64,000 nucleotides of DNA from NCBI GenBank assembly GCA_963838285.1, contig CAWIQP010000004.1, forward strand, positions 397,752 to 461,751. The letters run 5' to 3'. Position 1 is the first letter of the stretch. Every line of letters begins with the position of its first letter. The position numbers and the translations under genes were made by a program. Positions 4,519-60,529 of this stretch are shown piece after piece. This DNA is from an uncultured Chloroflexia bacterium (GTDB lineage: Bacteria; Chloroflexota; Limnocylindria; Limnocylindrales; CSP1-4). The notes under the pieces are model-generated. The model was given only the letters and a program-made list of their open reading frames with translations, was not told the DNA's origin and ran no database searches.

Positions 4519-5472
4519 TCAGCTGGCCGCGGGCGTGGCCGTCGCGGAGCCGGAGCCGCTCGGGGCCGGCGTCGCAGTCGCGGGGGCGGTCGGCGAGGCA
4601 CTCGGCGCCGCGGACGCTCCCGGGCTGCCCGACGCCCCGGGCGACGCGGATGGGGCCAGGCTTCCGGACGGCAGGGCGACCACGGGTTCCCCACTCGGCA
4701 GCGGCGCGAGGCCCGGAATCGCGGTCTCCGCCGCCAGGAAGTCGGACTGCAGCGCGGTGTCGTCGGCGTTCAGATCGTCCCTGAGCGCAAGCAGATCGTC
4801 CATCGACTTGGCCGCCCCCATCTGGTTCTGGAGCAGGTCGGCCTCGGCCGTTCCGTCGCCGGTCAGCTGTTGCACCAGCTCCGTCGTGGTGGCGGCCGCG
4901 TTCGGATTGGGCGTGGCGTTGGGGTCGTCCCAGCTGGCGATGTTGTTGAGATCGTCCATCCAGCCCCTCGTGTCCGCGCCGAGAGACTTGTACGCGCTCA
5001 GCAGCGCGTTGAAGTCGTTGTTCGCGACCGCGACCGAGACGGCCTTGAGGTCCGCGTCTCGCTTCGGCTTCCAGATGCTCTCGATCCGCGTCCAGTTGTC
5101 CTTCGCCGTGGGAGTGTGCGGCCCAAAGCTGGTGTACGCCCAGACTCCGGCGAAGAGGATGACGAACGCGATGAAGAGCGGGACGTACGCCTGCACGTAG
5201 CCGTAGGCGTTGCGAGCCATTGAGTTCCGCTGAACTCTGGCGAGGCCGTGCTTGCGGCGGACCGGTCTGCTCTCGCGGCCGGCCGGCGTCAACTCGACCT
5301 CGACCGCGTCGTCGGCAGGCGCGTCGGCCGCGGCGGGCTTTGACGCGTCCGGCGCGGCCGGCTTTCGCGACGCGTCCGGCGCGGCGGGCTTGCGTGCGGC
5401 TTCGGAGGCCTTGCGAGACGAGGTGCGATTGCTGCCTGGCGCGGCTCGGCCGCGGCGCGACTGTGGCGACAA
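4519..5472 (-). CDS. hypothetical single-pass membrane protein with Pro/Ala-rich N- and C-terminal repeats
   Basis: TTG start behind an AGGGAG RBS. The TM segment is VPLFIAFVILFAGVWAY. The N-terminal RKPAAPDAS repeats are encoded by DNA direct repeats at 5280-5400. An alternative ATG start is at 5220. Confidence 0.55.
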   Translation of the reverse strand: MSPQSRRGRAAPGSNRTSSRKASEAARKPAAPDASRKPAAPDASKPAAADAPADDAVEVELTPAGRESRPVRRKHGLARVQRNSMARNAYGYVQAYVPLFIAFVILFAGVWAYTSFGPHTPTAKDNWTRIESIWKPKRDADLKAVSVAVANNDFNALLSAYKSLGADTRGWMDDLNNIASWDDPNATPNPNAAATTTELVQQLTGDGTAEADLLQNQMGAAKSMDDLLALRDDLNADDTALQSDFLAAETAIPGLAPLPSGEPVVALPSGSLAPSASPGASGSPGASAAPSASPTAPATATPAPSGSGSATATPAAS

Positions 5473-5818: not shown

Positions 5819-8800
5819 GTGAAGCAGAACGGCGGATCGCGAGCCGAAGGGCTCTACGACCCCAGCTTCGAGCACGACGCGTGCGGCTTCGGCTTCGTCG
5901 TGGACATCGCCGGGCGCCCCTCTCACGACATCGTGCGCGACGCCCTGACCGTCCTGGTCAACCTCGAGCATCGCGGCGCCACGGGCTCCGACAAGAACAC
6001 CGGCGACGGCGCCGGACTGACCATCCAGATTCCCCACCGCTTCCTCGCCGACATGGCCGCCAGGTCCGGCGTGAGACTCCGCGGCAAGGGCGGCTACGGC
6101 GTCGGGATGGTCTTCCTGCCGCAGGACAAGGTCAGCCGCGTCGAGTGCTTCCGGCTCTTCGAGCAGGTCGTCGCCGACGAGGGCCTGCACTTCCTGGGCT
6201 GGCGCGACGTCCCCACCGAGAACGCCAGTCTTGGCGCCAGCGCGAAGGCCGCACAGCCGCTCATCCGCCAGGTCTTCATCGATCGGCCGGAGCGCCTGGT
6301 CGAGGACATGGCCTTTGAGCGCAAGCTGTACATCGTCCGCCGCCTGGTGGAGAAGGCCGTGTCGCGCTCGGCGATCCCGTCGCGCGGAGACTTCTACATT
6401 CCCTCGCTCAGCTGCCGGACGATCGTCTACAAGGGCATGCTCAATGCCTCGCAGCTGCGCGTCTTCTACCCCGATCTGGCCGACGAGCGCGTCGAGAGCG
6501 CCATCGCCATGGTCCACTCGCGCTTCTCCACCAACACGTTCCCGTCATGGCCGCGAGCCCATCCCTACCGCTTCATCTCGCACAATGGCGAGATCAACAC
6601 ACTTCGCGGCAACGTCAACTGGATGCACGCCCGGCAGTCGCAGTTCAGCTCCACGGTCTTCGGCGACGAGCTTACGAAGGCCCTGCCGGCCATCGACACA
6701 GAGGGTTCCGACTCGGCCATCCTGGACAACGTGCTGGAGTTGCTGTACCTCTCCGGCCGCTCACTGGCCCACGCCCTGATGATGATGGTGCCGGAGCCAT
6801 GGCAGCATCACGAGTCGATGGCGCCGGAGAAGCGAGCCTTCTACGAGTTCCATTCGTGCCTCATGGAGCCCTGGGACGGTCCCGCCTCGATCGCCTTCAC
6901 GGACGGCATCCGGGTCGGTGCCACGCTCGACCGCAACGGCCTGCGACCCGCGCGGTACTGGGTCACGGCCGACGGCCGGGTCGTCATGGCATCTGAGGCC
7001 GGCGTCCTCGACATCCCGCCGGACCAGGTCGTCGCCAAGGGACGGCTTCAGCCGGGACGCATGTTCCTCGTCGACACGGGCGAGCAGCGGATCGTCTCGG
7101 ACGACGAGCTGAAGCGGCGCGTCACCACCGAGCATCCCTACGAGGAGTGGGTCCGCGAGTGGCTGGTCAAGCTGACCGAGCTGCCGCCACCGCCGCGCGT
7201 GATCGAGCCGGACCACGAGACCGTCCTGCGCCGCCAGGAAGTCTTCGGCTACACCGCCGAGGACGTGCGGATGCTGATCAATCCGATGGCCGCGACCGGC
7301 ACCGAGCCGGTTGGGGCGATGGGCGACGACAGCGCTCTGGCCGTCCTCTCCGAACGCCCGCAGCTGCTCTACTCGTACTTCAGACAGCTCTTCGCGCAGG
7401 TGACAAACCCGCCGATCGACTCGATTCGCGAGGAGATCATCACCGCCACCGAGATGGCGATCGGGCCGGAGGGCAACCTGCTCGAGCCGGAGCCGTCGTC
7501 GGCGCACCAGCTCGAGCTGCCGTCGCCGGTCCTCTCCAACGAAGAGCTGGAGAAGATCCGCAACCTGGCCACCGGCGACGCCTCGTGCAAGCCCGCGGAG
7601 CACGGCTTCAAGACGATCACGCTGCCGATCCTCTACCAGGTCGCCGACGGCGGCGCGGGCATGCGCAAGGCCATCGAGCAGCTGCGGGATCGCTGCTCCG
7701 AGGCTATCTCCGAGGGCCACAACATCATCATCCTGTCGGACCGCGGCCACGGCGCCGAAGAGGCCCCGATCCCCGCACTTCTGGCCGTCTCGGCGGTTCA
7801 CCACCACCTCGTGCGGGCCGGCACCCGGACTCAGGTCGGCCTCGTCCTGGAATCCGGCGAGCCCCGCGAAGTCCACCACTTCGCCCTGCTCCTCGGCTAC
7901 GGCGCCAGCGCGGTCAACCCGTACCTAGCCTTCGAGACGGTCCACGACCAGGTCCGCCTGGGCATGATCTCGGGCTCCGCCGACCTGGCCGAGAAGAAGT
8001 ACCGCAAGGCCATCGCCAAGGGCATCGTCAAGGTCATCTCGAAGATGGGCATCAGCACCGTCCAGAGCTACCACGGCGCCCAGGTCTTCGAGGCCCTCGG
8101 GCTCAACCAGGACTTCATCGACGAGTACTTCACCTGGACGCCCACCCGCATCGGCGGCGTCGGCATCGACGTCGTCGCCCGCGAGGTGAAGATGCGCCAG
8201 GATCGAGCCTACCCGCCCAAGCGGCCGATCTACCACAAGCAGCTCGGCGTGGGCGGCAACGTCCAGTACCGCGTCGAGGGCGAGCACCACCTGCTGAACC
8301 CGCTGTCGATCTCGCAGCTCCAGTACGCAACGAGGAGCGGCAGCTATCCCGCGTTCAAGGAGTACTCGAAGCTCATCGACGACCAATCCGAGGGCCTGTG
8401 CACGCTGCGCGGCTTGATGGACTTCAAGTCGAACCACAGGCATCCGCTCTCGATCGACGAGGTCGAGCCGGTCGAATCGATCGTCAAGCGCTTCAAGACC
8501 GGCGCCATGAGCTACGGCTCGATCTCGCGGGAGACCCACGAAGCGCTCGCCATCGCCATGAACCGCCTCGGGGCCAAGTCGAACACCGGGGAAGGCGGCG
8601 AGGACCCGGCGCGATTCGAGACGCTGCCCAACGGCGACTCCCTCAAGAGCGCCATCAAGCAGGTCGCCTCCGGCCGCTTCGGCGTGACGAGCGAATACCT
8701 GGTCAGCGCCCGCGAGATCCAGATCAAGATGGCCCAGGGCGCCAAGCCCGGCGAGGGCGGCCAGCTCCCCGGCCACAAGGTCTACCCGTGGATCGCAAAG

Positions 8801-10468
8801 GTCCGCCACTCGACCCCGGGCGTCGGCCTGATCAGTCCGCCACCGCATCACGACATCTACTCGATCGAGGACCTGGCGGAGCTGATCCACGACCTCAAGA
8901 ACGCCAACCCGGACGCCCGCATCTCGGTCAAGCTCGTCTCCGAGGTAGGCGTCGGGACGATCGCCGCGGGAGTCGCCAAGGCCCACGCCGACGTCATCCT
9001 CATCAGCGGCCACGACGGCGGCACAGGCGCCTCGCCGCTTTCCTCGATCAAGCACGCCGGCCTGCCCTGGGAGCTCGGCATCGCCGAGACGAACCAGACG
9101 CTGCTCATCAACGATCTACGGTCGCGCGTGGCGGTCGAGGTCGACGGCCAGATGAAGACCGGCCGCGACGTCGTCGTCGGCGCCCTGCTCGGGGCGGAGG
9201 AGTTCGGCTTCGCGACCGCGCCCCTGGTCACCCTCGGTTGCGTGATGATGCGGGTCTGTCACCTGAACACCTGCCCCGTCGGCGTCGCCACGCAGGATCC
9301 GGAGCTTCGAAAGCGCTTCACCGGCGACCCTCAGTACGTGGTCAACTTCATGACCTTCGTCGCCCAGGAGGTCCGCGAGTACATGGCCCAGCTGGGCTTC
9401 CGGACGTTCGACGAGATGGTCGGCCACTCCGAGCGGCTCGAGATGCGGCGGGCGATCGACCACTGGAAGGCGCACAGCCTCGACTTCAGCCGGATCCTGT
9501 GCCAGCCGCAGGTGCCGAAGACGACGCTGCGGACCTGCCAGATCGGACAGGAGCACAAGATCGAGGTGTCGCTCGACTCAACGACGCTCATCCCGTTGTG
9601 CCAGCCAGCTCTCGAACGCGGCGAGAAGGTGACTGCCGAACTGCCCATCCGCAACGTCAACCGTGTCGTCGGCACGACCCTCGGCTCCGAGGTCACGCGC
9701 CGCTACGGCGGCGCCGGGCTGCCGGAGGACACGATCAGCCTCCACTTCCGCGGCTCGGCCGGCCAGAGCTTCGGTGCCTTCATCCCGAAGGGCATCACGC
9801 TCACCCTCGAGGGCGACGCCAACGACTACCTGGGCAAGGGCCTCTCGGGCGGCAAGATCGTCCTCTATCCGCCGCGCGAGGCCACGTTCGTGGCCGAGGA
9901 GAACGTCGTTACCGGAAACGTGGCCTTCTACGGAGCCACGTCGGGCGAGGCCTACATCCGCGGCATCGCCGGCGAGCGGTTCTGCGTCCGCAACTCCGGC
10001 GTCAAGGCCGTGGTGGAAGGCGTGGGCGACCACGGCTGCGAGTACATGACCGGCGGCAGGGTCGTCGTGATCGGCAAGACCGGCCGCAACTTCGCGGCGG
10101 GCATGTCGGGCGGCGTGGCCTACGTCCTGGACGAGAGCGGCGAAGGCGGGGCCGCGGGAGGCGGCTTCGAGCGGGTGTGCAACAAGGAGATGGTCCAGCT
10201 CTTCCCGCTGACCGATCCGCGGGAAGTCGCCGAAGTCAAGCGCCTCCTGGAGCGCCATGTCGAGTACACCGCCAGCACGCGGGCCAGGGCGCTTCTCGAC
10301 GACTGGCAGACGACCGTCGGCCGGTTCATCCGAGTCGTCCCGAACGACTACCGCCGCGTCGTCGAGGCCCAGGCAAGGATGCGCGAGAAGGGCCTCTCGC
10401 AGGAGGAGGCCGAGATGGCCGCCTTCGACGAGAACGTCATGGACGCGCGCCGAGTGGCGGGGAACTGA
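5819..10468 (+). CDS. gltB: glutamate synthase large subunit
   Basis: 1549 aa. Has the N-terminal amidotransferase Cys ([11 protein letters not shown]), FMN and GXGXG domains. GTG start. Confidence 0.97.
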
Positions 10469-10470
10469 CG

Positions 10471-11964
10471 ATGGGCAAGCCGACCGGCTTCATGGAGTTC
10501 GGGCGCGAGCCGGCCCACGTCCGGCCGCCGCTGGAGCGAGTCAAGGATTGGGCCGAGACCCACCCGGGCTACGAGGAAGCGACTCTCCGCGACCAGGGAG
10601 CCCGGTGCATGGACTGCGGCATCCCCTATTGCCACACCGGCGCGCTCGTCAACGGCCTGGCTCTGGGCTGCCCGATCCATAACCTTATCCCCGAGTGGAA
10701 CGACCTGATCTATCGCGGGCAATGGCGCGAGGCGATCATCCGGCTTCACAAGACGAACAACTTCCCGGAATTCACGGGCCGCGTCTGCCCGGCGCCGTGC
10801 GAGGGCTCCTGCACTCTGGGCATCAGCCAGCCGGCGGTGACGATCAAGACCATCGAGAACGAGATCGTCGAGCGCGCGTTCCTGGAGGGTTGGATCGTTC
10901 CGGAACCGCCGCTGGCCCGGACGGGCATGAAGGTCGCGGTCGTCGGCAGCGGGCCCTCGGGGCTGGCCGCGGCCGCGCAGCTGAACAAGGCCGGCCACCA
11001 GGTGACGGTCTTCGAGCGCGACGACAGAGTCGGCGGCCTGCTCGTGTACGGCATCCCCAACATGAAGCTGGACAAGTCGGTCGTCGATCGGCGCGTCAAG
11101 CTGCTCGAGGCCGAGGGAATCGACTTCGTCACGGGCACGGCCGTCGGCGTGGACGTTCCGGCCGAGCAGCTCGTCCGGGAGTACGACGCCGTGGTCCTGG
11201 CGACGGGCTCCACGGTTCCACGCGACCTGAAGGTCGAGGGCCGCGAGTTGGCGGGCGTCCACTTCGCCATGGAGTTCCTGGTCGCCAGCACGCGAGCCCT
11301 GCTCGGAGGGCCGGCGACGCCAATCTCGGCCGCGGGCAAGAACGTGGTCGTCATCGGCGGCGGCGACACCGGCACCGACTGCGTCGGCACGGCCGTCCGA
11401 CAGGGCGCGAAGAGCGTGGTCCAACTCGAGATCCTGCCCCGTCCGCCGGAGACGCGCGCTGCCGACAACCCGTGGCCCCAATGGCCCAAGGTGTACAAGC
11501 TCGACTACGGCCAGGAAGAGGCCGCCGCCCTGTGGGGCGCCGATCCACGACGCTATCTCATCAACACGCGGAGGCTCCTCGGCGACGAGGCGTCCGCGGG
11601 CGGCGGTCGGGTGACGGCAATCGAAACCGTCGAGATCGAGTGGGTCCACACCCCGGGCGGACGGCCCGAGATGCGCGAATGCCCAGGCACCGAGTCGCGG
11701 CTTCCGGCCGACCTCGTTCTGATCGCGATGGGCTTCACGGGGCCGGCGCCGGAGCTTCCGGCCGCCTTCGGCTGCAAGCTGGACCACCGCGGCAACATCG
11801 TCCACGACGACGACTTCATGACCACCACGCCGGGCGTCTTCGCGGCGGGCGACTGCTCTCGCGGACAATCGCTGGTGGTCTGGGCCATCAACGAGGGGCG
11901 CCTGGCGGCCCGCGCGGTGGACAAGTACCTGATGTTCGGCGAGTCGGTCCTGCCCGACTACTGA
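10471..11964 (+). CDS. gltD: glutamate synthase small subunit (NADPH)
   Basis: The start is 2 nt after the gltB stop. Fe-S cysteines ([20 protein letters not shown]) and FAD/NAD Rossmann motifs [10 protein letters not shown] and GGGDTGTDC are present. Confidence 0.95.
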
Positions 11965-12099
11965 GAGGCGGCTGGTCGGCCTGGCAGGTTCCGGGGCTCG
12001 CCCCGAGACTGCGCTCGCCCGCGCGGCGAGCGGACTCCCCGAAGCTGGGTTGCCGGCGCGCCGGGCGCGCCGAGCGCGAACCGGACCCCCACGGGCCTG

Positions 12100-12184
12100 G
12101 TGCGGCGCCCCGTGTGCTCTGTTGCGGCGCCCCGGGTGCTCTGTTGCGGCGCCCGGGCGTTCTGTTGCGGCGCCCGGGCGTTCT
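12100..12184. repeat. tandem repeat, about 4 copies of a 21-22 bp unit (gttgcggcgcccgggcgttct)
   Basis: Direct tandem copies with small variants, intergenic downstream of gltD. Confidence 0.85.
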
Positions 12185-12352
12185 AGGCGCCAACCTGGGC
12201 GCGAACCTGGCCAAATGCCGATCCCCGTAGCGCGGCCCCAGGTCTCGCCCACGCAGCGCCTCGGTTCCAGGTCGGCAAGGCGCTCGATATGGGCCCGCGG
12301 GGCCAGCAAACCGGCGTCGCGGATGCCATTCCTGCCATACGCAGGCCTCAGA

Positions 12353-12550
12353 ATCACATGGCCAACTTGCGGCGGAGCCGGAGTCGTCCCCGCGCTACAC
12401 CGGTCGGAATCTGGCCAAGTTCGGCCGCGCGGCGGAGCCGGAGTCGTCCCCGCGCTACCCGGGCCAGAATCTGGCCAAGTTCGGCCGCGCGGCGGAGCCG
12501 GAGTCGTCCCCGCGCTACACCGGTCGGAATCTGGCCAAGTTCGGCCGCGC
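12353..12550. repeat. minisatellite: about 3.2 copies of a 60-bp unit (MIRU/VNTR-like)
   Basis: Units at 12421-12480 and 12481-12540 are near-identical. Copy 1 and copy 3 are identical. Copy 2 differs at about 5 positions (acaccggtcgg versus acccgggccag). Confidence 0.9.
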
Positions 12551-12625
12551 CATCCCCTCCCCGCCGCCCGCGCATCCCCGCCCGCCGCCCGCGCCTCGCC
12601 CGCCCGCCGCCGCGCCGCCACGCCG

Positions 12626-12652
12626 CCACGCCACGCCACGCCACGCCACGCC
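12626..12652. repeat. pentanucleotide microsatellite (ccacg)x5 inside a GC-rich low-complexity tract
   Basis: Direct reading of the sequence. Confidence 0.8.
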
Positions 12653-12715
12653 GAAAGCAACGCACCTGGGCCCTCAGCCGTTGTGGATCGCCGCCGGGCG
12701 GCATACCGTTGGCGC

Positions 12716-13348
12716 ATGCCCACGCGCGACAGCGAAACCGACCGGATTCGCAGGATCTACGACCGCAGAGCGGCCACGCCACCGTCCACGCGGCGAGACG
12801 CCAATCTGCGCTGGCTGTGCGGCCAGGCTGAGGGCGAGACCCTGGAAATCGGGATAGGCCGCGGTCGCACGCTGCCGTTCTATCCGCGTGACGTGCGCCT
12901 GACCGGCATAGAGCTGAGCGGCGTGGCGCTCGGGACCGCAAGCCGACTCGCCGCCGACCTGGGCCGCGACGTCATCCTCCACCAGGGCGACGCCGCCGCC
13001 CTGCCCTACCCCGACGACCACTTCGACACAGTGGTCTTCAGCTTCGTCCTGTGCACGATCCCCGACGACCGCCGGGCGGTCGCCGAGGCCGTGAGGGTCC
13101 TTCACCCGGGCGGCCGGCTCCTGCTCGTCGAACACGTCCGCAGCCCCAACCCGATCGTGAGGGCGATCGAACGACTGGCCGACCCGATCACGCGCCGCTG
13201 GGAAGCCGATCACCTGCTGCGGGAACCGCTGTACCACGTCCTCGCCGAGGGAATGGAGATCGAGACGCTGGAGCGTTCGTGGTTCGGCGTGGTCGAGCGG
13301 CTGGCCGCGCGCAAGCCCGAGGCCGACGAGCTCGAACAGGTCGGCTGA
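12716..13348 (+). CDS. class I SAM-dependent methyltransferase (Methyltransf_11/UbiE-like)
   Basis: Motif I LEIGIGRG, post-I acidic residue, HPGGRLLLVEH. 210 aa. Confidence 0.8.
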   Translation: MPTRDSETDRIRRIYDRRAATPPSTRRDANLRWLCGQAEGETLEIGIGRGRTLPFYPRDVRLTGIELSGVALGTASRLAADLGRDVILHQGDAAALPYPDDHFDTVVFSFVLCTIPDDRRAVAEAVRVLHPGGRLLLVEHVRSPNPIVRAIERLADPITRRWEADHLLREPLYHVLAEGMEIETLERSWFGVVERLAARKPEADELEQVG

Positions 13349-19252: not shown

Positions 19253-21580
19253 TCAGCTGTTGAGGCGCAGCGTCATCTCCACCGTCGCTTCGGGCGACGC
19301 CGGCAGGACCAGGCTGCCTTCCGCCGTCGTCTCGACCCTGCCGCCGCGCACCGACTCGACCGTCTCGCCGACGAGGAGCAGGCGCCAGCCCGCAGCGGCC
19401 GCCCCGGGCGTCAGCGTGACCTGCTCGCCTTTGCGGCGAAGCTCGAAGGCGGATCCCGGCCGCCCGTCCTGTGACGGAACCGCCACCTTCACGCAGGCGC
19501 CGTCCTCGATGGCGTAGGCCCTCAGAGTCACACCTCGCGGATAGTCGTAGTCCGCCCTGGAGTCGCACTCTCCCATCGGAAGGACCGTATTCGGGCGGAC
19601 GAGCAGGGGCAGGCTGGAATACGGATGGCGCTCCTGGCGCCAGGCCGGCCCCTCGACGACCTCGCCGCTCAGGAGCTTCGTCCATTTGCCGGCCGGAACG
19701 TAGTACGTGACGTCGCCGGACTCCGTGAAAACCGGGGCCACGAGGAGGCGCTCACCGAGCATGTACTGGGAGTCCAGGTACGAGCACCCCGGGTCGTCCG
19801 GGAACTCGAGGCACATGGCCCTCATCGCCGGGACGCCCCGTTCGCTGGCCTCGACCGCCGCCCCGTACAGGTACGGCATGAGGCGATTCTTGAGCTTCGT
19901 GAACGAGCGCATGACGTCGACGGCCTCGTCGTCGAACAGCCACGGCACGCGATACGACTCGTTGGCGTGGAGCCGGCTGTGCGAAGACAGAAGCCCGAAG
20001 GCGAGCCATCGCTTGAAGACCGAAGCCGGAGGCGTTCCCTCGAACCCGCCGATGTCGTGGCTCCAGAAGCCGAAGCCCGAAAGCCCGAGCGAGAGTCCGC
20101 CTCGCAGACTCTCGGCCATCGATTCGAACGTGGACGTGCAATCCCCGCCCCAATGAACCGGGAACCGCTGAGTGCCGGCGGTGGCGGAGCGGGCGAAGAC
20201 GACCGCCTCTCCCTTGCCTCGCCGCTTCTCCAGCAGCTCGAACACGGTCCGGTTGTAGAGGTACGGGTAGAAGTTGTGCATCCGCTCGGGATCGGAGCCG
20301 TCGAAGTAGGCGACGTCGGTGGGAATGCGCTCGCCGAAGTCCGTCTTGAAGCAGTCGACGCCCATGTCGAGGAGCGGTTCGAGCTTGCTCGCGAACCAGG
20401 TGCGCGCCTCCGGGTTCGTGAAATCCACGAGGCCCATGCCGGGCTGCCAGCGGTCCCACTGCCACACGTCGCCGTTTGGTCTCTTCAGCAGGTAGCCCCG
20501 GTCGCGTCCCTCGGCGAACAGCGGCGAGCGCTGCGCGACGTACGGATTGATCCAGAGGCACACCCGCAGCCCGTCCGCCTTCAGCTGCTCGAGCATGCCC
20601 GGCGGATCGGGGAACTGACGCGTGTCCCACTCGAAGTCGCACCAGTTGAACTCGCGCATCCAGAAGCAATCGAAGTGGAAGACGCTCATGGGGAGGTCGC
20701 GTTCGGCCATCCCCCGGATGAAGCTCGTGACTGTCGGCTCGTCGTAGACCGTCGTGAAGGACGTGCTGAGCCACAGCCCGAACGACCAAGCCGGCGGGAG
20801 AGCGGGCCGGCCCGTCAAGGCCGTGTACTTCTCGAGTATCTCCTTGGGACTCGGTCCGTAGATGACGAAGTACTCGAGAGACTGGCCCTCGACGCTGAAC
20901 TGGACGCGCGACACGGTCTCCGAGGCGACCTCGAACGAGACGCGGCCGGGGTGGTTGACGAAGATGCCGTAGCCGCGGTTGGTCAGGTAGAACGGGATGT
21001 TCTTGTAGGCCTGCTCGCTGCTCGTCCCGCCGTCCTCGTTCCAGATGTCGACGGACTGACCGTTCTTCACGAACGGCCCGAATCGCTCGCCCAGCCCGTA
21101 CACGCACTCGCCCACGCCCAGGCCGATCTGGTCGAACAGGAAGTGGCGGCCGGCTTCGGTATCGACGATGCCGATGCCGTTGTGTTCGCTCGAGGTGAGA
21201 ACTCGACCGTCCGCCTCGTAGTCGATGCGCCACTCCTCGTCCCGGCTCACGCGAACGCTCAGCTTGCCCGCGCTGAGCTGGAGGGCTTCGTTCGTGACCG
21301 ACAGGGCCACCGGGCCGGGAGCGATCTCGAGCGGGAACTCGGGCCTTCGCGGGACCTCGCCTTCGAAATGCGTGAGGCGGACTCCGACGACGTCCGGCAT
21401 CGGCGAGCTCAACCGGATGGTCACGAGCGGGCCGCCGAGCGTGTGACCGCGGTGCTCGATCTTCCGGGTCGGCGCGTAGATGGTCAGCGCTCCGGTCGAC
21501 TCGGCAGCGTCGTACGCCTCGACCGGGTGCCAGACCGTGAGTCCGGGACGCATCTGCCAGTAGCCGTCGGAGAACTTCAT
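19253..21580 (-). CDS. glycoside hydrolase family 31 alpha-xylosidase/alpha-glucosidase (YicI-like)
   Basis: GH31 catalytic region WINPYV...KTDFGE (nucleophile Asp) and HWGGD...SHDIGGF (acid/base). Confidence 0.9.
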   Translation of the reverse strand: MKFSDGYWQMRPGLTVWHPVEAYDAAESTGALTIYAPTRKIEHRGHTLGGPLVTIRLSSPMPDVVGVRLTHFEGEVPRRPEFPLEIAPGPVALSVTNEALQLSAGKLSVRVSRDEEWRIDYEADGRVLTSSEHNGIGIVDTEAGRHFLFDQIGLGVGECVYGLGERFGPFVKNGQSVDIWNEDGGTSSEQAYKNIPFYLTNRGYGIFVNHPGRVSFEVASETVSRVQFSVEGQSLEYFVIYGPSPKEILEKYTALTGRPALPPAWSFGLWLSTSFTTVYDEPTVTSFIRGMAERDLPMSVFHFDCFWMREFNWCDFEWDTRQFPDPPGMLEQLKADGLRVCLWINPYVAQRSPLFAEGRDRGYLLKRPNGDVWQWDRWQPGMGLVDFTNPEARTWFASKLEPLLDMGVDCFKTDFGERIPTDVAYFDGSDPERMHNFYPYLYNRTVFELLEKRRGKGEAVVFARSATAGTQRFPVHWGGDCTSTFESMAESLRGGLSLGLSGFGFWSHDIGGFEGTPPASVFKRWLAFGLLSSHSRLHANESYRVPWLFDDEAVDVMRSFTKLKNRLMPYLYGAAVEASERGVPAMRAMCLEFPDDPGCSYLDSQYMLGERLLVAPVFTESGDVTYYVPAGKWTKLLSGEVVEGPAWRQERHPYSSLPLLVRPNTVLPMGECDSRADYDYPRGVTLRAYAIEDGACVKVAVPSQDGRPGSAFELRRKGEQVTLTPGAAAAGWRLLLVGETVESVRGGRVETTAEGSLVLPASPEATVEMTLRLNS

Positions 21581-21678
21581 AGGCTGTCGGCCGCCTCTCG
21601 CGCGTCGCGCTTCAACTTGCCCTCTGAACCCCGACTGAATGGTATCGAAGACGCGTGCCGAGCACCCGGCGGTCGCGG

Positions 21679-24036
21679 TCAGACGGGCAACCGGACCTCG
21701 ATTCGTGGCGAGTCTGCGGCGGGCGTGACGAGCATGCCTTCGGGGGTGCTCTCGGCGGCGGCGCCGGTCACGGCCAGGCCGGGCGCCGCGTTGACCAGCA
21801 TGAGCCGCCACGGCTTGGTTCCCCGCACGCGCTCCGCTACCACGACCCCGGCCGTCCTGGTCACCTCGAAGGCCGAATCGGTTCCGCCGCCCATTTCGGG
21901 CACGGCGACGGCTACCTTCACGCCTTCGGCGAGCTCATAGGCGTGGAGAGTCACTCCGTCCGCGAAGTCGTAGTCCGCCCTGTCGCTCCGAGCGCCCATG
22001 GCAACGACCGATCCGGGCCTGACCAGCAGCGGCAGACCGGCGGCGTCGCAGCGTTCCCGAATCCAGCCCGGTCCCTCCACGACCGAGCGGCTCAGCAGGT
22101 TCGTCCACCTGCCGGCCGGAACGTAGTACGTGGCGTCGCCCGACTCCGAGAATACCGGCGCCACGAGAAGCGACTCGCCGAGCATGTACTGGCGGTCGAG
22201 AAGAGCGGCCGTTGGATCGTCGGGGAACTCGAGCAACATCGCCCGCATCATCGGCACGCCGGTCCGCGAGACCTCAACGGCAGCACGGTACAGGTACGGC
22301 ATGAGACGGCACTTCAGCTGGGCGAAGTCCCTGACGACTTCGACGGCCCGATCGTCGACGAGCCACGGAACGCGGTACGAGTTGCTGCCGTGCAGGCGGC
22401 TGTGCGAGCTCAGCAAGCCGAACTGGGCCCAGCGCTGGTAGACGGCCGGTGAAGGCGTGCCTTCGAAGCCGCCGATGTCGTGGCTCCAGAAGCCGAAGCC
22501 GGACAGACTCAGGGACAGCCCGCCGCGCAGGGTGTCGGCCATGGATGGGAAGGTGCTCTCGCAGTCGCCGCCCCAGTGGACCGGGAAGAGCCAGCTGCAG
22601 GCCGTGGCCGACCGGGCGAAGACCACTGCCTCGCCCCGGCCGCGCCGCTCGCGCAGCAGACCGAAGACGGCCTCGTTGTAGAGGTACGGATAGAAGTTGT
22701 GCATCCGTTCCGGGTCCGACCCATCGTGCCAGACGACATCGGTCGGTATCCGCTCCCCGAAGTCGGTCTTGAAGGAATCGACGCCCTGGTCCAGGAGGGT
22801 CGCAAGCTTGGCGAGATACCAGTCGCGGGCCTTTGGGTTGGTGAAGTCGAGAATGCCCATCCCGGGCTGCCACTGGTCGCTCTGCCAGGTGTCGCCGTTC
22901 GGACGCCTGAGCAGGTAGCCTGCCTCGCTCGCCTCGCCGAAGAGTGGCGAAGCCTGGGCCACGTACGGGTTGATCCAGACGCAGACCCTCAGGCCGCGCT
23001 CGTGAAGCCGAGCCAGCATGCCGGCCGGATCGGGAAAGACCCCTTCGTCCCAGCTGAAGTCGACCCACTGGAACTCGCGCATCCAGAACGAGTCGAAGTG
23101 GAAGACGCTGAGGGGAATGTCCCGCTCCGCCATGCCCTCCACGAAGTGGGTCACCGTCGCCTCGTCGTAGTCGGTGGTGAACGAGGTCGAAAGCCACAGC
23201 CCGAACGACCAGGCCGGTGGCAGAGCCGGCCGGCCGACGAGGCCCGTAAACCGTTCCAGCACTTCCTTCGGACTCGGGCCGTAGATGACGAGGTACTCGA
23301 GCGTCTGGCCCTCGACACTGAAGCCGACCTGGTCGGCGCGCTCCGTCGCGACCTCGAACTCGACCTTCCCAGGATCGTTGACGAAGACGCCGTAACCGGC
23401 ATCGGTCAGATAGAAGGGCACGTTCTTGTACGCCTGCTCCGAGCCGGTGCCACCGTCGCGGTTCCACATGTCGATCGACTGGCCGTTCTTCACGAACGGA
23501 CCGAAGCGTTCGCCCAGGCCGTAGACGTGCTCGCCGACCCCGAGCGAGAGAGCGTCGGCCATGAAGTGGCCGACTCCGTGGCCGCCGTGAGCGTGCCGGC
23601 CGTGGCCCGCCCATTCGATCGCGGCCATGCTCTTCGAGTCGCTCGTGGTCAGAGTTCGGCCGCCGGCCGTGAACTCCAGGCTCCAGGGACCCGTTCGATT
23701 GATGCGCGCGGCCAGCCGGCCCGATCGGAGGCTCGCCGTGGAATCGTCGACCTCCACGTCGACGTCGGGGGCCTGGCCGGGGAAGATCGGAAAGACCGGC
23801 CCTTTGGCTCGACCGCCGGCGTGATGAGTCACGCGCACGCGGATCACATCGACCGTCGGGGACGACAGCTCGACCGTCAGAGCCACGAGATCGTGCATCT
23901 CCGAGCGATCCTGCGGGACGGCAGTGGGCGCAAGCACCGTCAGCGTGTCCTCGGTTGCGGTAACGCGGTGGACTACCGCCGGATACAGCGCGCGCACACC
24001 GTCACGCAACAGCCAGTACCCGTCCCTGAACTTCAT
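21679..24036 (-). CDS. glycoside hydrolase family 31 alpha-xylosidase, tandem paralog
   Basis: Collinear with the downstream GH31 gene at an estimated ~60-65% identity. Same catalytic motifs. Confidence 0.9.
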   Translation of the reverse strand: MKFRDGYWLLRDGVRALYPAVVHRVTATEDTLTVLAPTAVPQDRSEMHDLVALTVELSSPTVDVIRVRVTHHAGGRAKGPVFPIFPGQAPDVDVEVDDSTASLRSGRLAARINRTGPWSLEFTAGGRTLTTSDSKSMAAIEWAGHGRHAHGGHGVGHFMADALSLGVGEHVYGLGERFGPFVKNGQSIDMWNRDGGTGSEQAYKNVPFYLTDAGYGVFVNDPGKVEFEVATERADQVGFSVEGQTLEYLVIYGPSPKEVLERFTGLVGRPALPPAWSFGLWLSTSFTTDYDEATVTHFVEGMAERDIPLSVFHFDSFWMREFQWVDFSWDEGVFPDPAGMLARLHERGLRVCVWINPYVAQASPLFGEASEAGYLLRRPNGDTWQSDQWQPGMGILDFTNPKARDWYLAKLATLLDQGVDSFKTDFGERIPTDVVWHDGSDPERMHNFYPYLYNEAVFGLLRERRGRGEAVVFARSATACSWLFPVHWGGDCESTFPSMADTLRGGLSLSLSGFGFWSHDIGGFEGTPSPAVYQRWAQFGLLSSHSRLHGSNSYRVPWLVDDRAVEVVRDFAQLKCRLMPYLYRAAVEVSRTGVPMMRAMLLEFPDDPTAALLDRQYMLGESLLVAPVFSESGDATYYVPAGRWTNLLSRSVVEGPGWIRERCDAAGLPLLVRPGSVVAMGARSDRADYDFADGVTLHAYELAEGVKVAVAVPEMGGGTDSAFEVTRTAGVVVAERVRGTKPWRLMLVNAAPGLAVTGAAAESTPEGMLVTPAADSPRIEVRLPV

Positions 24037-26143: not shown

Positions 26144-27550
26144 CTAGAGGCTGGGCTTGCCGGCGTTGTACGCCGTGGCGAGCGCGTCGAGGAACTTCGA
26201 CGGGTCTTGCCCGTTCATGAGGTTCTGCACGTTCGAAACGAGGACGTTGTAGAAGCCGGGGACCGGCCAGTCGGGATAGTAGGCCAGTCCGTCGTTCTTG
26301 AGCAGCGTCTGGAAGTTCTGGTTGAACGTCTGGAGCGCCGGATCGGTGATGGCCGTCGCGTCCGCGGCGACCGGCAGGCCGCCGGCCCGACCCATGATGT
26401 TCTGGATCGGCGTGGAGAGGGTGATGTCGATGAAGTCCTCCGCCAGGTCCGCGTTCTTGGACCCGCTCGGAATGACCCAGATGTTACCGCTCGAACCGGG
26501 GGCGAGGGTGTTGCCCGGGAAGAGGAAGATTCCCCACTTGAACTTGGTGATCTCGGTGATGAACGAGCCGTACCACCAGCTGCCGGTGGGGAAGATCGGG
26601 TTCTTGCCTGCCATGAATGCGTCGCCGGCCTGCTGGGCGGTCAGAGACACCTCGTTCTTGGTCAGGTAACCGTTCTTCATCCACTTGGCGAACTCCGTGG
26701 CGCCGAAGGTCAGCGCCGTGTCGTGGAAGTCGACGGCGTTCGCGTACATCTCATAGTCGTTGACCCACTGGCGATTCGCCTGGCTCAGGACCAACTGATA
26801 GAAGATCTGCTGGGCCGGATACTCGGCGCCGCCCGTCGCGACCGGAGTGATCCCGGCCTTGACGAAGGTGTCCATCGCCGTCTCGAAATCGGCGAGGGTA
26901 TTGGGGACCGTGATGTTGTACTTGGTGAACATGTCCTGGTTGTAGTAGACCATGACGTATTCGCCGTACGTCGTCACGCCGTACCACTTGCCGGAGCCCA
27001 TGATCCCCTTCGGGCTGTACATGCAGGTGGTCTGCAGGCTCGGGGTGAGGATCTTGTCCCAGCCCCGCGTCGTGGCGACGCTCGTGAGGTCCGTAAGCAA
27101 TCCCTGCGTCGACAGGAGGCCCGCCGTCGCGTTGCCCTTGTTGTACTCCATCACGTCGGGGGCGGCGCCCGAGTTGAGGATCATCGACGCGTTCGACTGG
27201 ATGTCCTCGAACGCCTTCGCCTCGTGAGTGACGGTGCAGCCGGGGTGCGTGGACTTGAACGTGTCGATCGCGGCGGCCCAGGACTGGCCCATGGCGCTGT
27301 CGGCCAATTCATAGTCCCAGATCGTGAGCGTGCGGCCCGTGTAGTTCGGCGTTGTCGGCGCGGGAACTACCGTCGGGGCCGGGGCCGTGGTGGGGGCCGG
27401 GGCCGTGGTGGGGGCCGGGGCCGTGGTGGGAGTGGCGGAGCTCGAAGAGCATGCCGCGGCGACGGCCGGCAGAACGGTCAGGCCGACTGCGCCCAGCACT
27501 CCCTTCTTCAGGATCTCTCGACGGGTAACTGGACCTTCCAACTCAGGCAT
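26144..27550 (-). CDS. sugar ABC transporter extracellular solute-binding lipoprotein (family 1)
   Basis: Tat-like RREILKKG plus lipobox AAACSS, then a (PAPTTA)n linker and an SBP_bac_1 fold. Confidence 0.85.
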   Translation of the reverse strand: MPELEGPVTRREILKKGVLGAVGLTVLPAVAAACSSSSATPTTAPAPTTAPAPTTAPAPTVVPAPTTPNYTGRTLTIWDYELADSAMGQSWAAAIDTFKSTHPGCTVTHEAKAFEDIQSNASMILNSGAAPDVMEYNKGNATAGLLSTQGLLTDLTSVATTRGWDKILTPSLQTTCMYSPKGIMGSGKWYGVTTYGEYVMVYYNQDMFTKYNITVPNTLADFETAMDTFVKAGITPVATGGAEYPAQQIFYQLVLSQANRQWVNDYEMYANAVDFHDTALTFGATEFAKWMKNGYLTKNEVSLTAQQAGDAFMAGKNPIFPTGSWWYGSFITEITKFKWGIFLFPGNTLAPGSSGNIWVIPSGSKNADLAEDFIDITLSTPIQNIMGRAGGLPVAADATAITDPALQTFNQNFQTLLKNDGLAYYPDWPVPGFYNVLVSNVQNLMNGQDPSKFLDALATAYNAGKPSL

Positions 27551-28888: not shown

Positions 28889-28943
28889 GTCGAAGCGCGT
28901 AGTCGAAGCGCGTAGTCGAAGCGCGTAGTCGAAGCGCTTCGAC
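28889..28943. promoter_or_regulatory. operator array: 3 tandem 13-bp units (gtcgaagcgcgta) ending in a perfect 16-bp palindrome GTCGAAGCGCTTCGAC
   Basis: Sits in the lacI/xylA divergent intergenic region. The palindrome has the central AAGCGCTT typical of LacI-family operators. Confidence 0.6.
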
Positions 28944-31793: not shown

Positions 31794-32294
31794 TTGGAAG
31801 CTGCGACCCGGCTGAGTCCGGCCCATGCTCGTGAACTCCAGACGGCATTCAGGGTCCACATGCCCTGGCTCCGGCGGCGGATCGCGTTGATCGTTGGCGA
31901 TCCCGACGAGGCGTCGGACATCGCCCAGGAAGCCTTCGCCCGCGCCGTGGAGAACTGGCCGCTCGGCTCACGCGACGATGTGGCCCGCTGGCTTGCGACG
32001 GTCGGCATCAGGCTGGCAATCGATGCGCTGCGCCGACGCAGGCGTTGGGGTTTCACGCCGCTCCACGAAACCGACGCGACCTGGGCTCTGGATGTCGACC
32101 CCGACCTCTGGCGGGCGATTGCGACGCTGAAGCCGACAGCTCGTGCCGCGTTGCTGCTCACCGTGCTCGATGGATACACACAGGACGAGGTCGCGGCCGC
32201 GCTCAGCGTGAGGCGCGGCACCGTCGCAAGCTGGCTCTTGCGAGCACGCGACGAGCTGCGACCCCTCATCGGGAGTTCCGAAGATGGACGATAA
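31794..32294 (+). CDS. ECF-type RNA polymerase sigma factor (sigma-70 regions 2 and 4)
   Basis: Region 2 DIAQEAF. Region 4 ARAALLLTVLDGYTQDEVAAALSVRRGTVASWLLRARDEL. TTG start behind a GGGAGG RBS. Confidence 0.8.
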   Translation: MEAATRLSPAHARELQTAFRVHMPWLRRRIALIVGDPDEASDIAQEAFARAVENWPLGSRDDVARWLATVGIRLAIDALRRRRRWGFTPLHETDATWALDVDPDLWRAIATLKPTARAALLLTVLDGYTQDEVAAALSVRRGTVASWLLRARDELRPLIGSSEDGR

Positions 32295-35732: not shown

Positions 35733-35750
35733 CGAGGCGAGCCCGAGCGC

Positions 35751-35820
35751 AGCGGGCCGGGCGGTTTCAGCGGGCCGCGCGGTTTCAGCGGGCCCGGCGG
35801 TTTCAGCGGGCCGCGCCGAC
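35751..35820. repeat. tandem repeat, about 3.7 copies of an 18-bp unit (agcgggccgcgcggtttc)
   Basis: Direct reading. Immediately 3' of the small ORF. Confidence 0.85.
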
Positions 35821-59680: not shown

Positions 59681-60529
59681 ATGAAAGAAGAAGCAGCCTG
59701 GCGTACCGAGCTCAAGTGGTGGCTCTCGTCGTTCGCGACGTTGATGCCCATCCTGCTGGCCTTTCGGGCGCTGGCCACGGCCGGCTCCTTCGCCACGACA
59801 AGCGCCAATGAGCTCGACGTTGCCGGAGTCACGGATCGCTACGGTGCCGCGGTCGGCCTCGAGCTCCTCTGGCCCATCTCCGTTCTCCTCGTTTTCTTTC
59901 CATTCCTGATCATCGCCGCGCTCGGCTTCCGGCTGCTCCTCCCGGCCGACGAGGAGGCTCGCCCGCGCGCCCTGGCGGTGGCCGTGGCAACCTGGCCGCT
60001 GGCCCTCGGCGCCGGCATCGTCAGCATGGACCCGCTGGGCGTGCTCTTCTTCGCCGCGATCGGCGCCATCTGGGGCCTGACGATGCCCCTGCCTGGGAAG
60101 ACGCTGCTGTCCGGCGACCCGATCAAGGGCGGTCTCGTCGTCGGGCTGGCGTTCGGGTCGCTGCTTCTCGTGGAGGGCGTCCTCTGGGGGATCCTGTGGT
60201 GCGCATGGCGGATCTACAAGGGGGCGTCGGTGGATGTGGTGGCGACGGCGGCCGGAGCGGCCGTCGTGCCCGTCCTTCTGCTCGTCGACGAGTTGCGAAC
60301 CACGTCCATCGCCGGCGTCGCGCTGGACTTCGCGGTCGAGGTGGTCGGCCTGATCGGCGTGTCAGTTGCGGCCGTCGTCGCCGACAAGATGAGGCGCCGC
60401 GACGCCAGATTGGCCGCGGCGGCGGCGGCCGCGGCGGCAGGGCTCCGGGACGGGGAGCCCGCCGAGGCTGCGCCCGACGCCCTGTCCGAGGCCGCGGCCG
60501 ACGACCTGTCCGGTACCTGGGAGAGCTGA
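59681..60529 (+). CDS. hypothetical polytopic membrane protein
   Basis: About 7 hydrophobic helices. The start is uncertain (the ORF extends back to 59636). Confidence 0.45.
   Translation: MKEEAAWRTELKWWLSSFATLMPILLAFRALATAGSFATTSANELDVAGVTDRYGAAVGLELLWPISVLLVFFPFLIIAALGFRLLLPADEEARPRALAVAVATWPLALGAGIVSMDPLGVLFFAAIGAIWGLTMPLPGKTLLSGDPIKGGLVVGLAFGSLLLVEGVLWGILWCAWRIYKGASVDVVATAAGAAVVPVLLLVDELRTTSIAGVALDFAVEVVGLIGVSVAAVVADKMRRRDARLAAAAAAAAAGLRDGEPAEAAPDALSEAAADDLSGTWES

Follow-up and report, generated by a model that had tools for sequence, protein, structure and literature searches.

The 60-bp tandem repeat downstream of gltD is built on one arm of an inverted-repeat element. Each of its units consists of 21 nt of inner flank and the ~38-nt right arm (IR-R) of a ~230-bp element whose left arm (IR-L) lies upstream of the array, and the same element is found in single copy at the same position in two other Limnocylindria-like lineages (L004 and L092/L093). 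Taking together the anatomy of the tract, the homology of the element, the co-variation of its arms, its patchy distribution and the variation among strains, we regard the locus as, probably, a near-neutral spacer in a gene-turnover hotspot, in which local duplications in tandem have remodelled the sequence surrounding a MITE-like palindromic element.

The 64,000-nt stretch of DNA that was analysed (the window) has a GC content of 69% and comes from an uncultured Limnocylindria-like member of the Chloroflexota. The closest relatives of its GltD (86-87%) are found in 'Chloroflexia/Chloroflexi' MAGs, and the relatives of the methyltransferase encoded downstream are named Candidatus Limnocylindrales. 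The features of the locus are collected in Table 1.

Table 1. Features of the gltD-methyltransferase spacer and its flanks, in window coordinates (TRF, Tandem Repeats Finder)
Feature	Position	Strand	Basis and remarks
gltD (glutamate synthase small subunit)	10471-11964	+	Upstream flank; 497-aa product, Fer4_20/Pyr_redox_2 domains in identical locus L001
Perfect 7-bp stem, 5-nt loop (GCTCGCC-CGCGC-GGCGAGC)	12013-12031	+	gltD 3' region; without T-tract; from sequence, present in minimum-free-energy fold
9-bp x2.7 micro-array (GGCGCGCCG)	12055-12078		TRF
21/22-bp x4 array	12097-12184		TRF x3.6-4.1, 89-92% matches; strain alignments
Terminator-like hairpin from two adjacent 21/22-bp units	12131-12167	+	10-pair stem, 7-nt loop, then CGTTCTGTTG
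12-bp x2 duplication (GGCGCCAACCTG / GGCGCGAACCTG)	12186-12210		Outer end of left arm; TRF and sequence
Left arm (IR-L), inverted partial copy of 60-bp unit	12198-12235	-	Homologous to L004 ~10517-10554, L092 ~4679-4716
Element centre (154 nt)	12236-12389		Last 21 nt (12369-12389) belong to 60-bp unit
60-bp x3 array	12369-12550		TRF x3.0, score 336
Right-arm copies	12390-12427, 12450-12487, 12510-12547		Homologous to single-copy right arm, L004 ~10683-10720, L092 ~4846-4885
C-rich tract	12551-12652	+	Degenerate 21-bp x3.7 and 8-bp periodicities, ending CCACG x5
Putative methyltransferase core promoter	12681-12709	+	TTGTGG (12681-12686), 17 nt, TACCGT (12704-12709), 6 nt, ATG
Class I SAM-dependent methyltransferase (210 aa)	12716-13348	+	Downstream flank; Methyltransf_11/25/31 domains

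The spacer and its tandem arrays

All three tandem-repeat arrays lie inside the 751-bp spacer between gltD and the methyltransferase gene, in agreement with the first-pass annotation, which had placed them in an intergenic region downstream of gltBD and had described the flanking genes correctly. The identity of gltB and gltD rests on Pfam domains, and the methyltransferase has 1659 homologues at E <= 1e-40. The perfect stem in the 3' region of gltD is a predicted terminator of this gene. At the other end of the spacer, a putative promoter of the methyltransferase stands immediately ahead of the ATG in a leaderless-type layout, and the arrangement of TACCGT, 6 nt and ATG is kept in 11 of the 13 orthologous loci, most of them with TTYYCA 17 nt upstream. 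A scan for sigma-70 consensus promoters found none, the conserved TACCGT motif scoring below the threshold of that scan.

Tandem Repeats Finder and direct reading confirmed the three array families that had been reported from the sequence. Each unit of the 21/22-bp array consists of the palindrome CGCCC(C)GGGCG followed by TTCTGTTG. For the terminator-like hairpin formed by two adjacent units, a consensus scan gave one site where 0.3 +/- 0.6 were expected, which is weak evidence, and the fold of the array as a whole is not stronger than that of shuffled sequences (z = -1.5). An origin of the 21/22-bp unit in the 5' flank of the sigma gene found in relatives was also considered and rejected, the similarity not being significant. 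In the 60-bp array, the perfect-imperfect-perfect pattern noted earlier was recovered, with copies 1 and 3 identical and copy 2 94% identical, and sub-patterns of the unit gave 3 matches against 0.00 expected in 100 shuffles. The shortened junction copy that had been described beside this array (~12348-12368) does resemble the unit at 19 of 21 nt and in register with the array, but the alignment is not significant (p=0.32). As microhomology seeding the 60-bp duplication it was rejected on the same p value and because its spacing predicts a 54-bp period, not 60 bp. In the C-rich tract, TRF called the 21-bp x3.7 periodicity at 12545-12624, and direct reading placed five contiguous copies of CCACG, again as reported, at 12626-12650, with one further separated copy at 12618-12622. 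The opposite strand of this tract is G-rich with runs of at least three G, and as plus-strand RNA the tract is unusually unstructured (z = +2.2). Folded as RNA, the whole spacer tract is not more structured than shuffled sequences (z = +0.9 and -1.1), nor do the arrays stand out individually. The repeats do not form a CRISPR array, their units standing head-to-tail with a start-to-start spacing equal to the unit length.

The frame that continues into the methyltransferase is open from 12050, as had been pointed out, and the view that it is open by chance also held, because no codon-position GC pattern is seen upstream of 12716, because orthologues of the methyltransferase start at the same Met and because the spacer is without a called gene in two assemblies (L001/L002). 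We find it barely plausible that the repeats are coding, whether as an N-terminal extension of the methyltransferase or as a protein of 20-residue repeats in plus frame 0 (AAEPESSPRYTGRNLAKFGR x3). Besides the open frame, such a reading can draw on the periods of 21 and 60, both multiples of 3, and on a GC3 of 0.87-0.97 in frame 0 within the 60-bp array; but the GC3 excess, with 18/20 in one phase, does not reach significance (p=0.10) and is seen in the array alone and not in its flanks, frame 0 has a stop at 12228-12230 and no ATG, GTG or TTG before the array, one unit of the first array is 22 bp long, and a strain indel shifts the frame. Pfam gave no hits in the six frames of the tract, the frame-0 repeat peptide had no homologue among 5.8 billion proteins, and a codon-degenerate motif scan of metagenomes gave no match.

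An inverted-repeat element shared between lineages

The first-pass annotation overlooked the inverted partial copy that constitutes the left arm, and it therefore missed the inverted-repeat element underlying the 60-bp unit. Local alignment for the left arm scored 34 against a null maximum of 30; when the array was reduced to a single unit, the window tract aligned to L004 with a score of 69.5 against a null maximum of 58. Both arms have the same order, orientation and spacing in L004 and L092 as in the window; the arms are 34-38 nt long and 76-79% complementary (34 nt and 79% in the window), and across the three lineages the element measures ~215-240 bp. Unlike the arms, the centre is poorly conserved between clades, and only a short block (GCGCTCGAT) is common to the window and L004/L092. 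In the 35-pair outer stem, 88.6% of cells are paired compared with 27-43% in slid controls, and 8 pairs show double-sided changes compared with 0-2 in the controls, the co-variation being drawn from three sequences in two clades. Minus-strand folding of the element (z = -4.3, -4.0 and -3.0 in the three lineages) is stronger than plus-strand folding in all three, and when the full array is folded, it is the outermost of the right-arm copies that forms the stem with the left arm (z = -3.1). The compensatory changes in the arms and the conserved position would also fit a selected hairpin, of RNA or of DNA.

Among relatives, the element is patchily distributed. The gap between gltD and the methyltransferase measures 44-61 bp in L083, L096 and L100, is filled with beta-propeller genes in L003 and L086 and with other genes in L087, L088 and L094, and contains an ECF sigma-factor operon in L004, L092/L093 and L103. 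In L004 and L092/L093 the element lies between the putative divergent promoters of the sigma-factor operon and the methyltransferase; in the window lineage the sigma and anti-sigma genes are absent. Both conserved flanks of the element are present in L103 with only 145 bp between them, and the element is missing from most relatives, including most of those with the same sigma gene or methyltransferase. The tandem arrays are absent from all relatives compared, in none of which is anything homologous to the left part of the tract. A pseudogene origin of the tract, from the genes that relatives have at this place (beta-propeller, S26 peptidase, 665/710-aa proteins, ECF sigma, anti-sigma), was also considered and rejected, as tblastn returned scattered noise that was inconsistent in order and strand. 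Since relatives carry opposite-strand genes between gltD and the methyltransferase, these two genes are not a conserved operon, and the methyltransferase has, in addition, its own putative promoter.

We take the inverted-repeat element to be, most likely, the fossil of a MITE-like palindromic insertion. When filled and empty sites were compared, no target-site duplication was visible, the flanks being too diverged to fix the boundaries. Conservation of the arms is higher at their inner than at their outer ends, an unusual pattern for transposon termini. It is possible, although unlikely, that the element instead functions as a structured hairpin of RNA or DNA, such as a regulatory RNA on the minus strand that is linked to the neighbouring ECF sigma operon or to the promoter of the methyltransferase, in which case the triplicated right arm would give alternative pairing partners and alter function. 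Such a hairpin is consistent with the complementarity kept through the double-sided changes, with the stronger folding of the minus strand and the pairing of the left arm with the outermost right-arm copy, with a position upstream of the same gene that is kept in two clades whose methyltransferases are ~70% identical, and with the finding of no other copy in the loci examined. Against it stand the poor conservation of the centre, the fact that relatives with the same sigma gene or methyltransferase mostly lack the element, and the result of the Rfam search, which at E <= 1 matched neither the tract nor L004/L092, two tRNAs alone reaching the gathering score in the window and no tRNA being found in the tract; moreover, a strong folding z-score is expected of any inverted repeat. 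The element lies between conserved blocks, one beside each of the two genes, that resemble their core promoters and may therefore be in neither transcript, and within-species substitutions at 12473 and 12540, in right-arm copies, break the arm pairing, suggesting relaxed constraint. We hold it to be quite unlikely that Limnocylindria-like Chloroflexota have in this element a structured RNA not described before, whose sense strand would be the minus strand and which would act beside the ECF sigma operon. Compensatory evolution would then preserve its long closing stem, and the three alternative right arms of the window would provide a structural switch dependent on repeat number.

Strain variation and the origin of the arrays

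Strain-level comparison covered four sequences, and the 60-bp array is spanned by three assemblies. In these four, change in the arrays is about nine times faster than at third-codon positions nearby: 15 substitutions fall in the 751-bp tract and only 5 in the 2259 third-codon positions compared (p=3e-6), and all but one of the 15 lie in arrays (14; p=4e-4). The strain-variable copy number that had been suggested for the locus was found in the 21/22-bp array, of which L090 has 3 units and each of the other sequences 4, but not in the 60-bp array, which has 3 copies in all three spanning assemblies. This constant copy number could reflect constraint and not chance. The 21/22-bp array has three sequence alleles among the four strains, the strain alleles of the C-rich tract differ by 7 substitutions and a 6-bp indel, and L001 and L002 have one common tract allele despite 145 differing sites elsewhere. 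Some 1-bp differences may be long-read homopolymer errors.

That the arrays are artefacts of long-read metagenome assembly is hardly credible. Judging by the naming and length of their contigs, the source and L001/L002 do appear to be long-read, and one difference is a 1-bp change in a C-run, but three independent assemblies from different samples have the same architecture, a fourth, short-read contig (L090) agrees where it covers the tract, and the tract allele shared by the otherwise differing L001 and L002 also argues against an artefact. We consider it very unlikely that the arrays are protein-binding sites (operators or iteron-like) controlling the methyltransferase promoter or a replication/partition function. 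The 21/22-bp spacing corresponds to two helical turns with a 10-bp palindrome per unit, regular palindromes recur (CGCCCGGGCG in the 21-bp unit and GCCGCGCGGC at each 60-bp junction) and the arrays lie upstream of the putative promoter, as might be expected of such sites; however, the palindromes vary, with three alleles and one unit loss among four sequences, and the arrays have no counterpart in any relative, the left part of the tract being without homology. An iteron-type replication origin was rejected, the neighbours including no initiator gene and the cumulative GC skew being monotonic across the locus.

In our preferred reading of a near-neutral spacer, the ancestral core would have been the single-copy ~230-bp element, made up of the left arm, the 154-nt centre and the right arm at 12390-12427. 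In the window lineage, several independent local tandem duplications may then have occurred in the spacer: the right arm with its 21 nt of inner flank would have been triplicated to form the 60-bp array, the left arm would have been duplicated at its outer end to give the 12-bp pair, the palindrome-bearing 21/22-bp unit would have reached its four copies, and a C-rich stretch would have grown into the 21-bp and CCACG repeats. Replication slippage or unequal recombination, helped by the GC-rich palindromes, would be the simplest mechanism. The arrays keep turning over in sequence, and the 21/22-bp array also in copy number; their fast change, in four sequences only, suggests that they are without selected function. 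The locus may offer a snapshot of the origin of a minisatellite in a bacterial genome, in which a palindromic element that is single-copy in relatives has had one arm triplicated in one lineage and nearby short palindromic seeds have been amplified too, within a slot of gene turnover between close lineages. If the element were mobile or an RNA, it would be the first described family of that kind for this uncultured soil/freshwater class, a modest advance.

Comparison with known repeat systems

The first-pass annotation likened the locus to the MIRU/VNTR minisatellites of mycobacteria. MIRUs have small ORFs overlapping the ends of flanking genes. The window tract resembles them in its tandem 60-bp unit, within the 40-100 bp range, and in its intergenic position between same-strand neighbours with an open frame into the methyltransferase; the 21/22-bp array, for its part, varies between 3 and 4 units among the four strain-level sequences. 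It differs in having no small ORF coupled to flanking genes and no coding signature, and in belonging to another phylum, the host being one of the Chloroflexota. MIRUs are minisatellites, mostly intergenic, that are thought to be transcribed within polycistronic operons (PMC3635867), whereas opposite-strand genes lie between gltD and the methyltransferase in relatives and the methyltransferase has a promoter-like motif of its own.

Neither was a dispersed family detected. The 60-bp unit has no other copy in the 64-kb window, and its pattern is absent from 185,579 species-representative genomes, mycobacteria included. A degenerate 34-nt pattern, specific to the window's version of the arm such that it would miss that of L004, gave no match in species-representative genomes, IMG/VR, plasmid records or JGI metagenomes, the JGI scan having omitted sample 3300081534, whose contig L090 carries a match. 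A profile search of 1.05 Mb of loci brought up no second copy of the element, and none was found in the window, L004, L092 or L093 (~88 kb of carrier genomes). With a 60-bp copy number that is invariant in the spanning assemblies, membership of a MIRU/VNTR-type system, with dispersed 40-100-bp units in operons, transcribed together with gltBD and the methyltransferase and hypervariable in copy number, is highly improbable and largely refuted. The locus belongs neither to a mycobacterium nor to a MIRU-like system, and it has no coding content; as the arrays lie in a non-coding spacer and the 60-bp unit is a local triplication of one arm, it points to the birth of a repeat and not to a MIRU-type system.

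The tract has in common with bacterial minisatellites and VNTRs its head-to-tail, non-coding units of 5-60 bp, its elevated rate of change and one array that gains or loses a unit, but it is without a typing scheme, phenotype or phase-variable gene, and its 60-bp array is stable in the few strains compared. GC-rich imperfect palindromes in an intergenic position after a gene, sometimes as inverted pairs, recall REP, BIME and REPIN sequences, whereas a REP unit is shorter and has tens to hundreds of copies, compared with no extra copy of the window element in 64 kb. In BOX elements (boxA - boxB(n) - boxC), the end modules pair into a stem-loop that holds a variable-number tandem module (PMC3049150); in the window, too, a module of an inverted-repeat element has been amplified in tandem. 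However, boxB is internal and barely in the stem of the pneumococcal BOX, whereas the repeated module of the window contains the arm itself, and BOX is dispersed at many loci per genome, whereas the window element is located at one known locus and its amplified form in one lineage; with an arm in the amplified module and no dispersal detected, the locus is not a BOX-like composite.

For MITEs, the defining features used here are those in PMC3049150. MITEs are AT-rich relative to their genome (PMC3049150), whereas the tract is at or above the genome's 69% GC; the window element further differs from them in having inner arm ends that are the better conserved. No target-site duplication was recognised between its diverged flanks, and no second copy was found in ~88 kb of carrier sequence. 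In its length of ~230 bp, its inverted repeats of ~35-38 nt and its patchy presence at an otherwise conserved site, the non-coding element nevertheless resembles MITEs such as Correia, with which it shares the defining features of terminal inverted repeats, small size, no coding capacity and a highly base-paired structure.

Tandem arrays in the gltD-methyltransferase spacer

The 751-bp spacer between gltD and the methyltransferase gene in the window (GC content 69%) contains several tandem arrays, and Tandem Repeats Finder (TRF) and direct reading agree on the three that the first-pass annotation had described. Its perfect-imperfect-perfect pattern in the 60-bp array is likewise borne out, as copies 1 and 3 are identical and copy 2 shows 94% identity with clustered substitutions; sub-patterns of the unit occur three times, with none expected by chance. 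Two independent strain-level metagenome contigs of this locus, L001 and L002 (over 20.6 kb, 99.3-99.5% identical to the window), contain every array, and a third, L090, agrees over the part it covers, therefore we rejected an assembly artefact. The closest GltD relatives (86-87% amino-acid identity) belong to MAGs labelled uncultured Chloroflexia/Chloroflexi, and methyltransferase relatives carry the NCBI name Candidatus Limnocylindrales, which places the window in an uncultured, high-GC Chloroflexota.

Features of the spacer, its flanking genes and other tandem arrays (window coordinates unless stated)
Feature	Position	Remarks
gltD, flanking gene (gltB/gltD pair)	10471-11964	
21/22-bp array, x3.6-4.1	12097-12184	TRF
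Left arm of ~230-bp inverted-repeat element	12198-12235	centre 154 nt
60-bp array, x3.0	12369-12550	TRF, score 336
C-rich degenerate 21-bp periodicity	12545-12624	TRF
CCACG x5, contiguous	12626-12650	direct reading; TRF shows the run as 10/15-bp rows
Class I SAM methyltransferase, 210 aa, flanking gene	12716-13348	
27 bp x2.8	5320-5391	
18 bp x3.1, perfect	27375-27430	in high-GC3 open frame
13 bp x3.8, perfect	28889-28937	apparently at gene boundary
18 bp x3.6	35750-35813	
24 bp x2.1	60462-60512	in high-GC3 open frame
45 bp x2.8	5740-5917 of L103 (a relative's locus)	TRF score 226; within/near RDD-domain gene

Arrays with a TRF score of at least 80 number seven in the 64-kb window versus one in ~97 kb of relatives' loci, an excess that may reflect either a lineage-specific tendency to tandem duplication or long-read versus short-read assembly bias. 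A pair of neighbouring glycoside hydrolase family 31 genes on the minus strand at ~19640-23320 (16534-20633 in L001) are tandem paralogues with ~76-77% DNA identity over 1.3-1.4 kb.

The frame running into the methyltransferase is open from 12050, but every plus frame of this GC-rich tract comes close to being open. A methyltransferase-like codon-position GC pattern is absent 5' of 12716 and the start Met is identical in all orthologues, in keeping with the earlier view that this open frame is probably due to chance. Frame 0 across the 60-bp array would read AAEPESSPRYTGRNLAKFGR three times with a GC3 of 0.87-0.97, an excess limited to this array which corresponds to 18 of 20 independent codons and is reached by 10% of shuffles. 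This frame has a stop at 12228-12230 and no start codon after it; Pfam gave no match in the six frames of the tract, searching 5.8 billion proteins with the repeat peptide gave none either, and a codon-degenerate motif scan of JGI metagenomes was empty. With no start codon, Pfam match, protein homologue or significant GC3 signal, a coding reading was rejected. A known RNA family was also rejected, Rfam and ARAGORN being blank on the tract, and neither the whole tract nor any array alone folds better than shuffles.

Origin of the 60-bp unit in an inverted-repeat element

A repeat search revealed an inverted partial copy of the 60-bp unit at 12202-12235 (34 nt, 79% complementary), a significant match whose score of 34 exceeds the shuffle maximum of 30. 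A profile built from the window copies alone gave weak matches in L004, the corresponding locus of a relative, in opposite orientations ~140 bp apart and just upstream of its methyltransferase; by direct reading, both arms are homologous and single-copy there. Alignment of the window tract, with the array collapsed to one unit, to L004 scored 69.5 against a null maximum of 58. The element is also present, single-copy and without tandem arrays, in L092/L093 of the L004 clade. These single-copy homologues indicate that the 60-bp unit joins 21 nt of inner flank to the ~38-nt right arm of a ~230-bp inverted-repeat element, an arm that the window lineage has triplicated. The left arm also has its outer 12 nt duplicated in tandem (12186-12209, TRF).

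In an alignment of three independent versions, the three sequences on which the co-variation is based, 88.6% of cells in the 35-pair outer stem are paired and 8 pairs show double-sided changes, compared with 27-43% and 0-2 when partners were slid by 1-3 columns; 8 such changes were reached in 4/500 shuffles. Folding of the element is far stronger than that of shuffles, chiefly on the minus strand, with z = -4.3 in L004, -4.0 in L092, -3.0 in the window with one right arm and -3.1 with the full array, where the pairing partner of the left arm is the outermost copy of the right arm (plus-strand folds, z = -1.7, -3.4 and -1.9). Because the double-sided changes maintain complementarity and the element is known from one locus only, a selected hairpin or structured RNA is a serious alternative. 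We favour a fossil MITE-like insertion, as the element is patchily distributed at a conserved site, has arms better conserved than its centre, is independent of both neighbouring genes and lies between two apparent core promoters. The arms share ~67-68% identity between the window and L004, with the centre aligning poorly except for one short block. The window's nearer relatives (L083, L086, L087, L088, L003) lack the element, as do four of the six L004-clade lineages; one of these four, L103, has both conserved flanks, yet only 145 bp lie between its sigma gene and methyltransferase.

No target-site duplication is recognisable around the element. The window and 1.05 Mb of fetched loci contain no further copy of the 60-bp unit, for which the first-pass annotation had suggested looking, and no second element copy occurs in these loci or in the carrier sequences (the window, L004, L092 and L093, ~88 kb of carrier genomes). 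Collection scans, made with a pattern tailored to the window's version of the arm, found nothing similar in plasmid records and nothing among JGI metagenome contigs; the latter negative is limited by coverage, as the scan omits at least one JGI sample, 3300081534, whose contig L090 matches the pattern. L093 carries an IS630-type transposase gene (HTH_32 + DDE_3; 8134-9039) absent from the near-identical L092, indicating active insertion sequences in a lineage carrying the element.

Turnover of the spacer within and between lineages

In a comparison of four sequences, some of them from long-read assemblies, where 1-bp differences in homopolymers are unreliable, the tract differs between the window and L001 by 15 substitutions over 751 bp (2.0%) and two indels, versus 5/2259 at third codon positions across gltB, gltD and the methyltransferase gene (Fisher p=3e-6); 14 of the 15 fall inside arrays (p=4e-4). 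L001 and L002 differ at 145 sites over 20 kb and share a single tract allele, therefore these differences are real alleles and not random assembly noise. The 21/22-bp array undergoes unit turnover and copy-number change: L001/L002 have three near-identical units where the window's are heterogeneous, and L090 carries a third allele, shorter by exactly one unit. The strain-variable copy number proposed earlier thus holds for this array. In the 60-bp array, each of the three assemblies that span it has three copies; L090, a short-read contig, breaks where copy 2 starts. Within-species substitutions at 12473 and 12540 in right-arm copies disrupt left-arm pairing as read from the sequence, consistent with redundant copies being under relaxed constraint.

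The junction between gltD and the methyltransferase is a hotspot of gene turnover. A gap of 44-61 bp separates the two genes in L083-85, L096-99 and L100; a convergent beta-propeller gene lies between them in L003 and L086, other minus-strand genes in L087, L088 and L094, and, in L004, L092/93 and L103-105, an ECF sigma factor (Sigma70_r2/r4_2) with a long gene downstream of it, in divergent orientation to the methyltransferase. No remnants of these genes are detectable in the window tract. Junction contents over L003, L004, L083-L088, L092-L100 and L103-L107 include genes of 665-737 aa and an S26 peptidase, and the long gene downstream of the opposite-strand ECF sigma factor possibly encodes an anti-sigma factor. 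An ECF-type sigma factor paralogue at window 31881-32282 (34% identity to the methyltransferase-neighbouring one of L004/L092) is not an orthologue of the lost junction gene.

The last ~45 nt before the methyltransferase start carry TT(T/C)(T/C)CA-17 nt-TACCGT-6 nt-ATG in 11 of 13 lineages (comparing window 12681-12718 with L083, L091, L092, L094, L096, L100, L103, L003, L004 and L086), a layout kept even where gltD ends just 44-61 bp upstream. The window retains TACCGT-6-ATG, with TTGTGG at the 17-nt spacing; ~10 extra nt separate the ancestral -35-like CCCTCAG from TACCGT. Conservation predicts that this layout is a leaderless-type core promoter of the methyltransferase, and its position directly before the ATG would place all arrays upstream of the probable promoter and outside its mRNA. 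The minus strand of 12551-12652 has repeated runs of at least three G (e.g., GGGCGGCGGGCGGGGATGCGCGGG), so that the complement of this C-rich tract would match a G-quadruplex motif immediately 5' of the predicted promoter; the plus-strand RNA of the tract has unusually little structure (z = +2.2). Adjacent 21/22-bp units form a terminator-like hairpin followed by CGTTCTGTTG (one site versus 0.3 expected), the sole hint of array function and a candidate that might aid in ending gltBD transcription.

GC-rich palindromes and long inverted repeats promote replication slippage and unequal exchange. Every unit contains a GC-rich palindrome, namely CGCCCGGGCG in the 21-bp unit, GCCGCGCGGC at each 60-bp junction and GGCGCGCC in a 9-bp micro-array, and the tract core is a long inverted repeat. 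We conclude that the tract is near-neutral and reshaped by local duplications; at least four tandem duplications would have arisen around the palindromic element, with slippage or unequal exchange at these sequences generating the units.

Comparison with known repeat systems

MIRUs, a set of minisatellite loci in Mycobacterium tuberculosis, lie mostly between genes and are thought to be transcribed as part of polycistronic operons (PMC3635867). The window arrays are alike only in unit size and intergenic position, whereas dispersal within the sequence scanned, operon context and host (Chloroflexota, not mycobacterial) all fail, and the MIRU/VNTR architecture suggested on first pass is not supported. 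By definition, MITEs end in inverted repeats, form a base-paired structure, carry target-site duplications and are AT-rich, and BOX elements have boxA and boxC ends flanking a variable tandem boxB array (PMC3049150). The element has a similar architecture to both; neither a second copy in the ~88 kb of carrier genomes nor a recognisable target-site duplication was found, and unlike in BOX, the amplified module is the arm itself. Altogether, the locus is best described as a cluster of locus-specific bacterial minisatellites built on an inverted-repeat element that is MITE-like.
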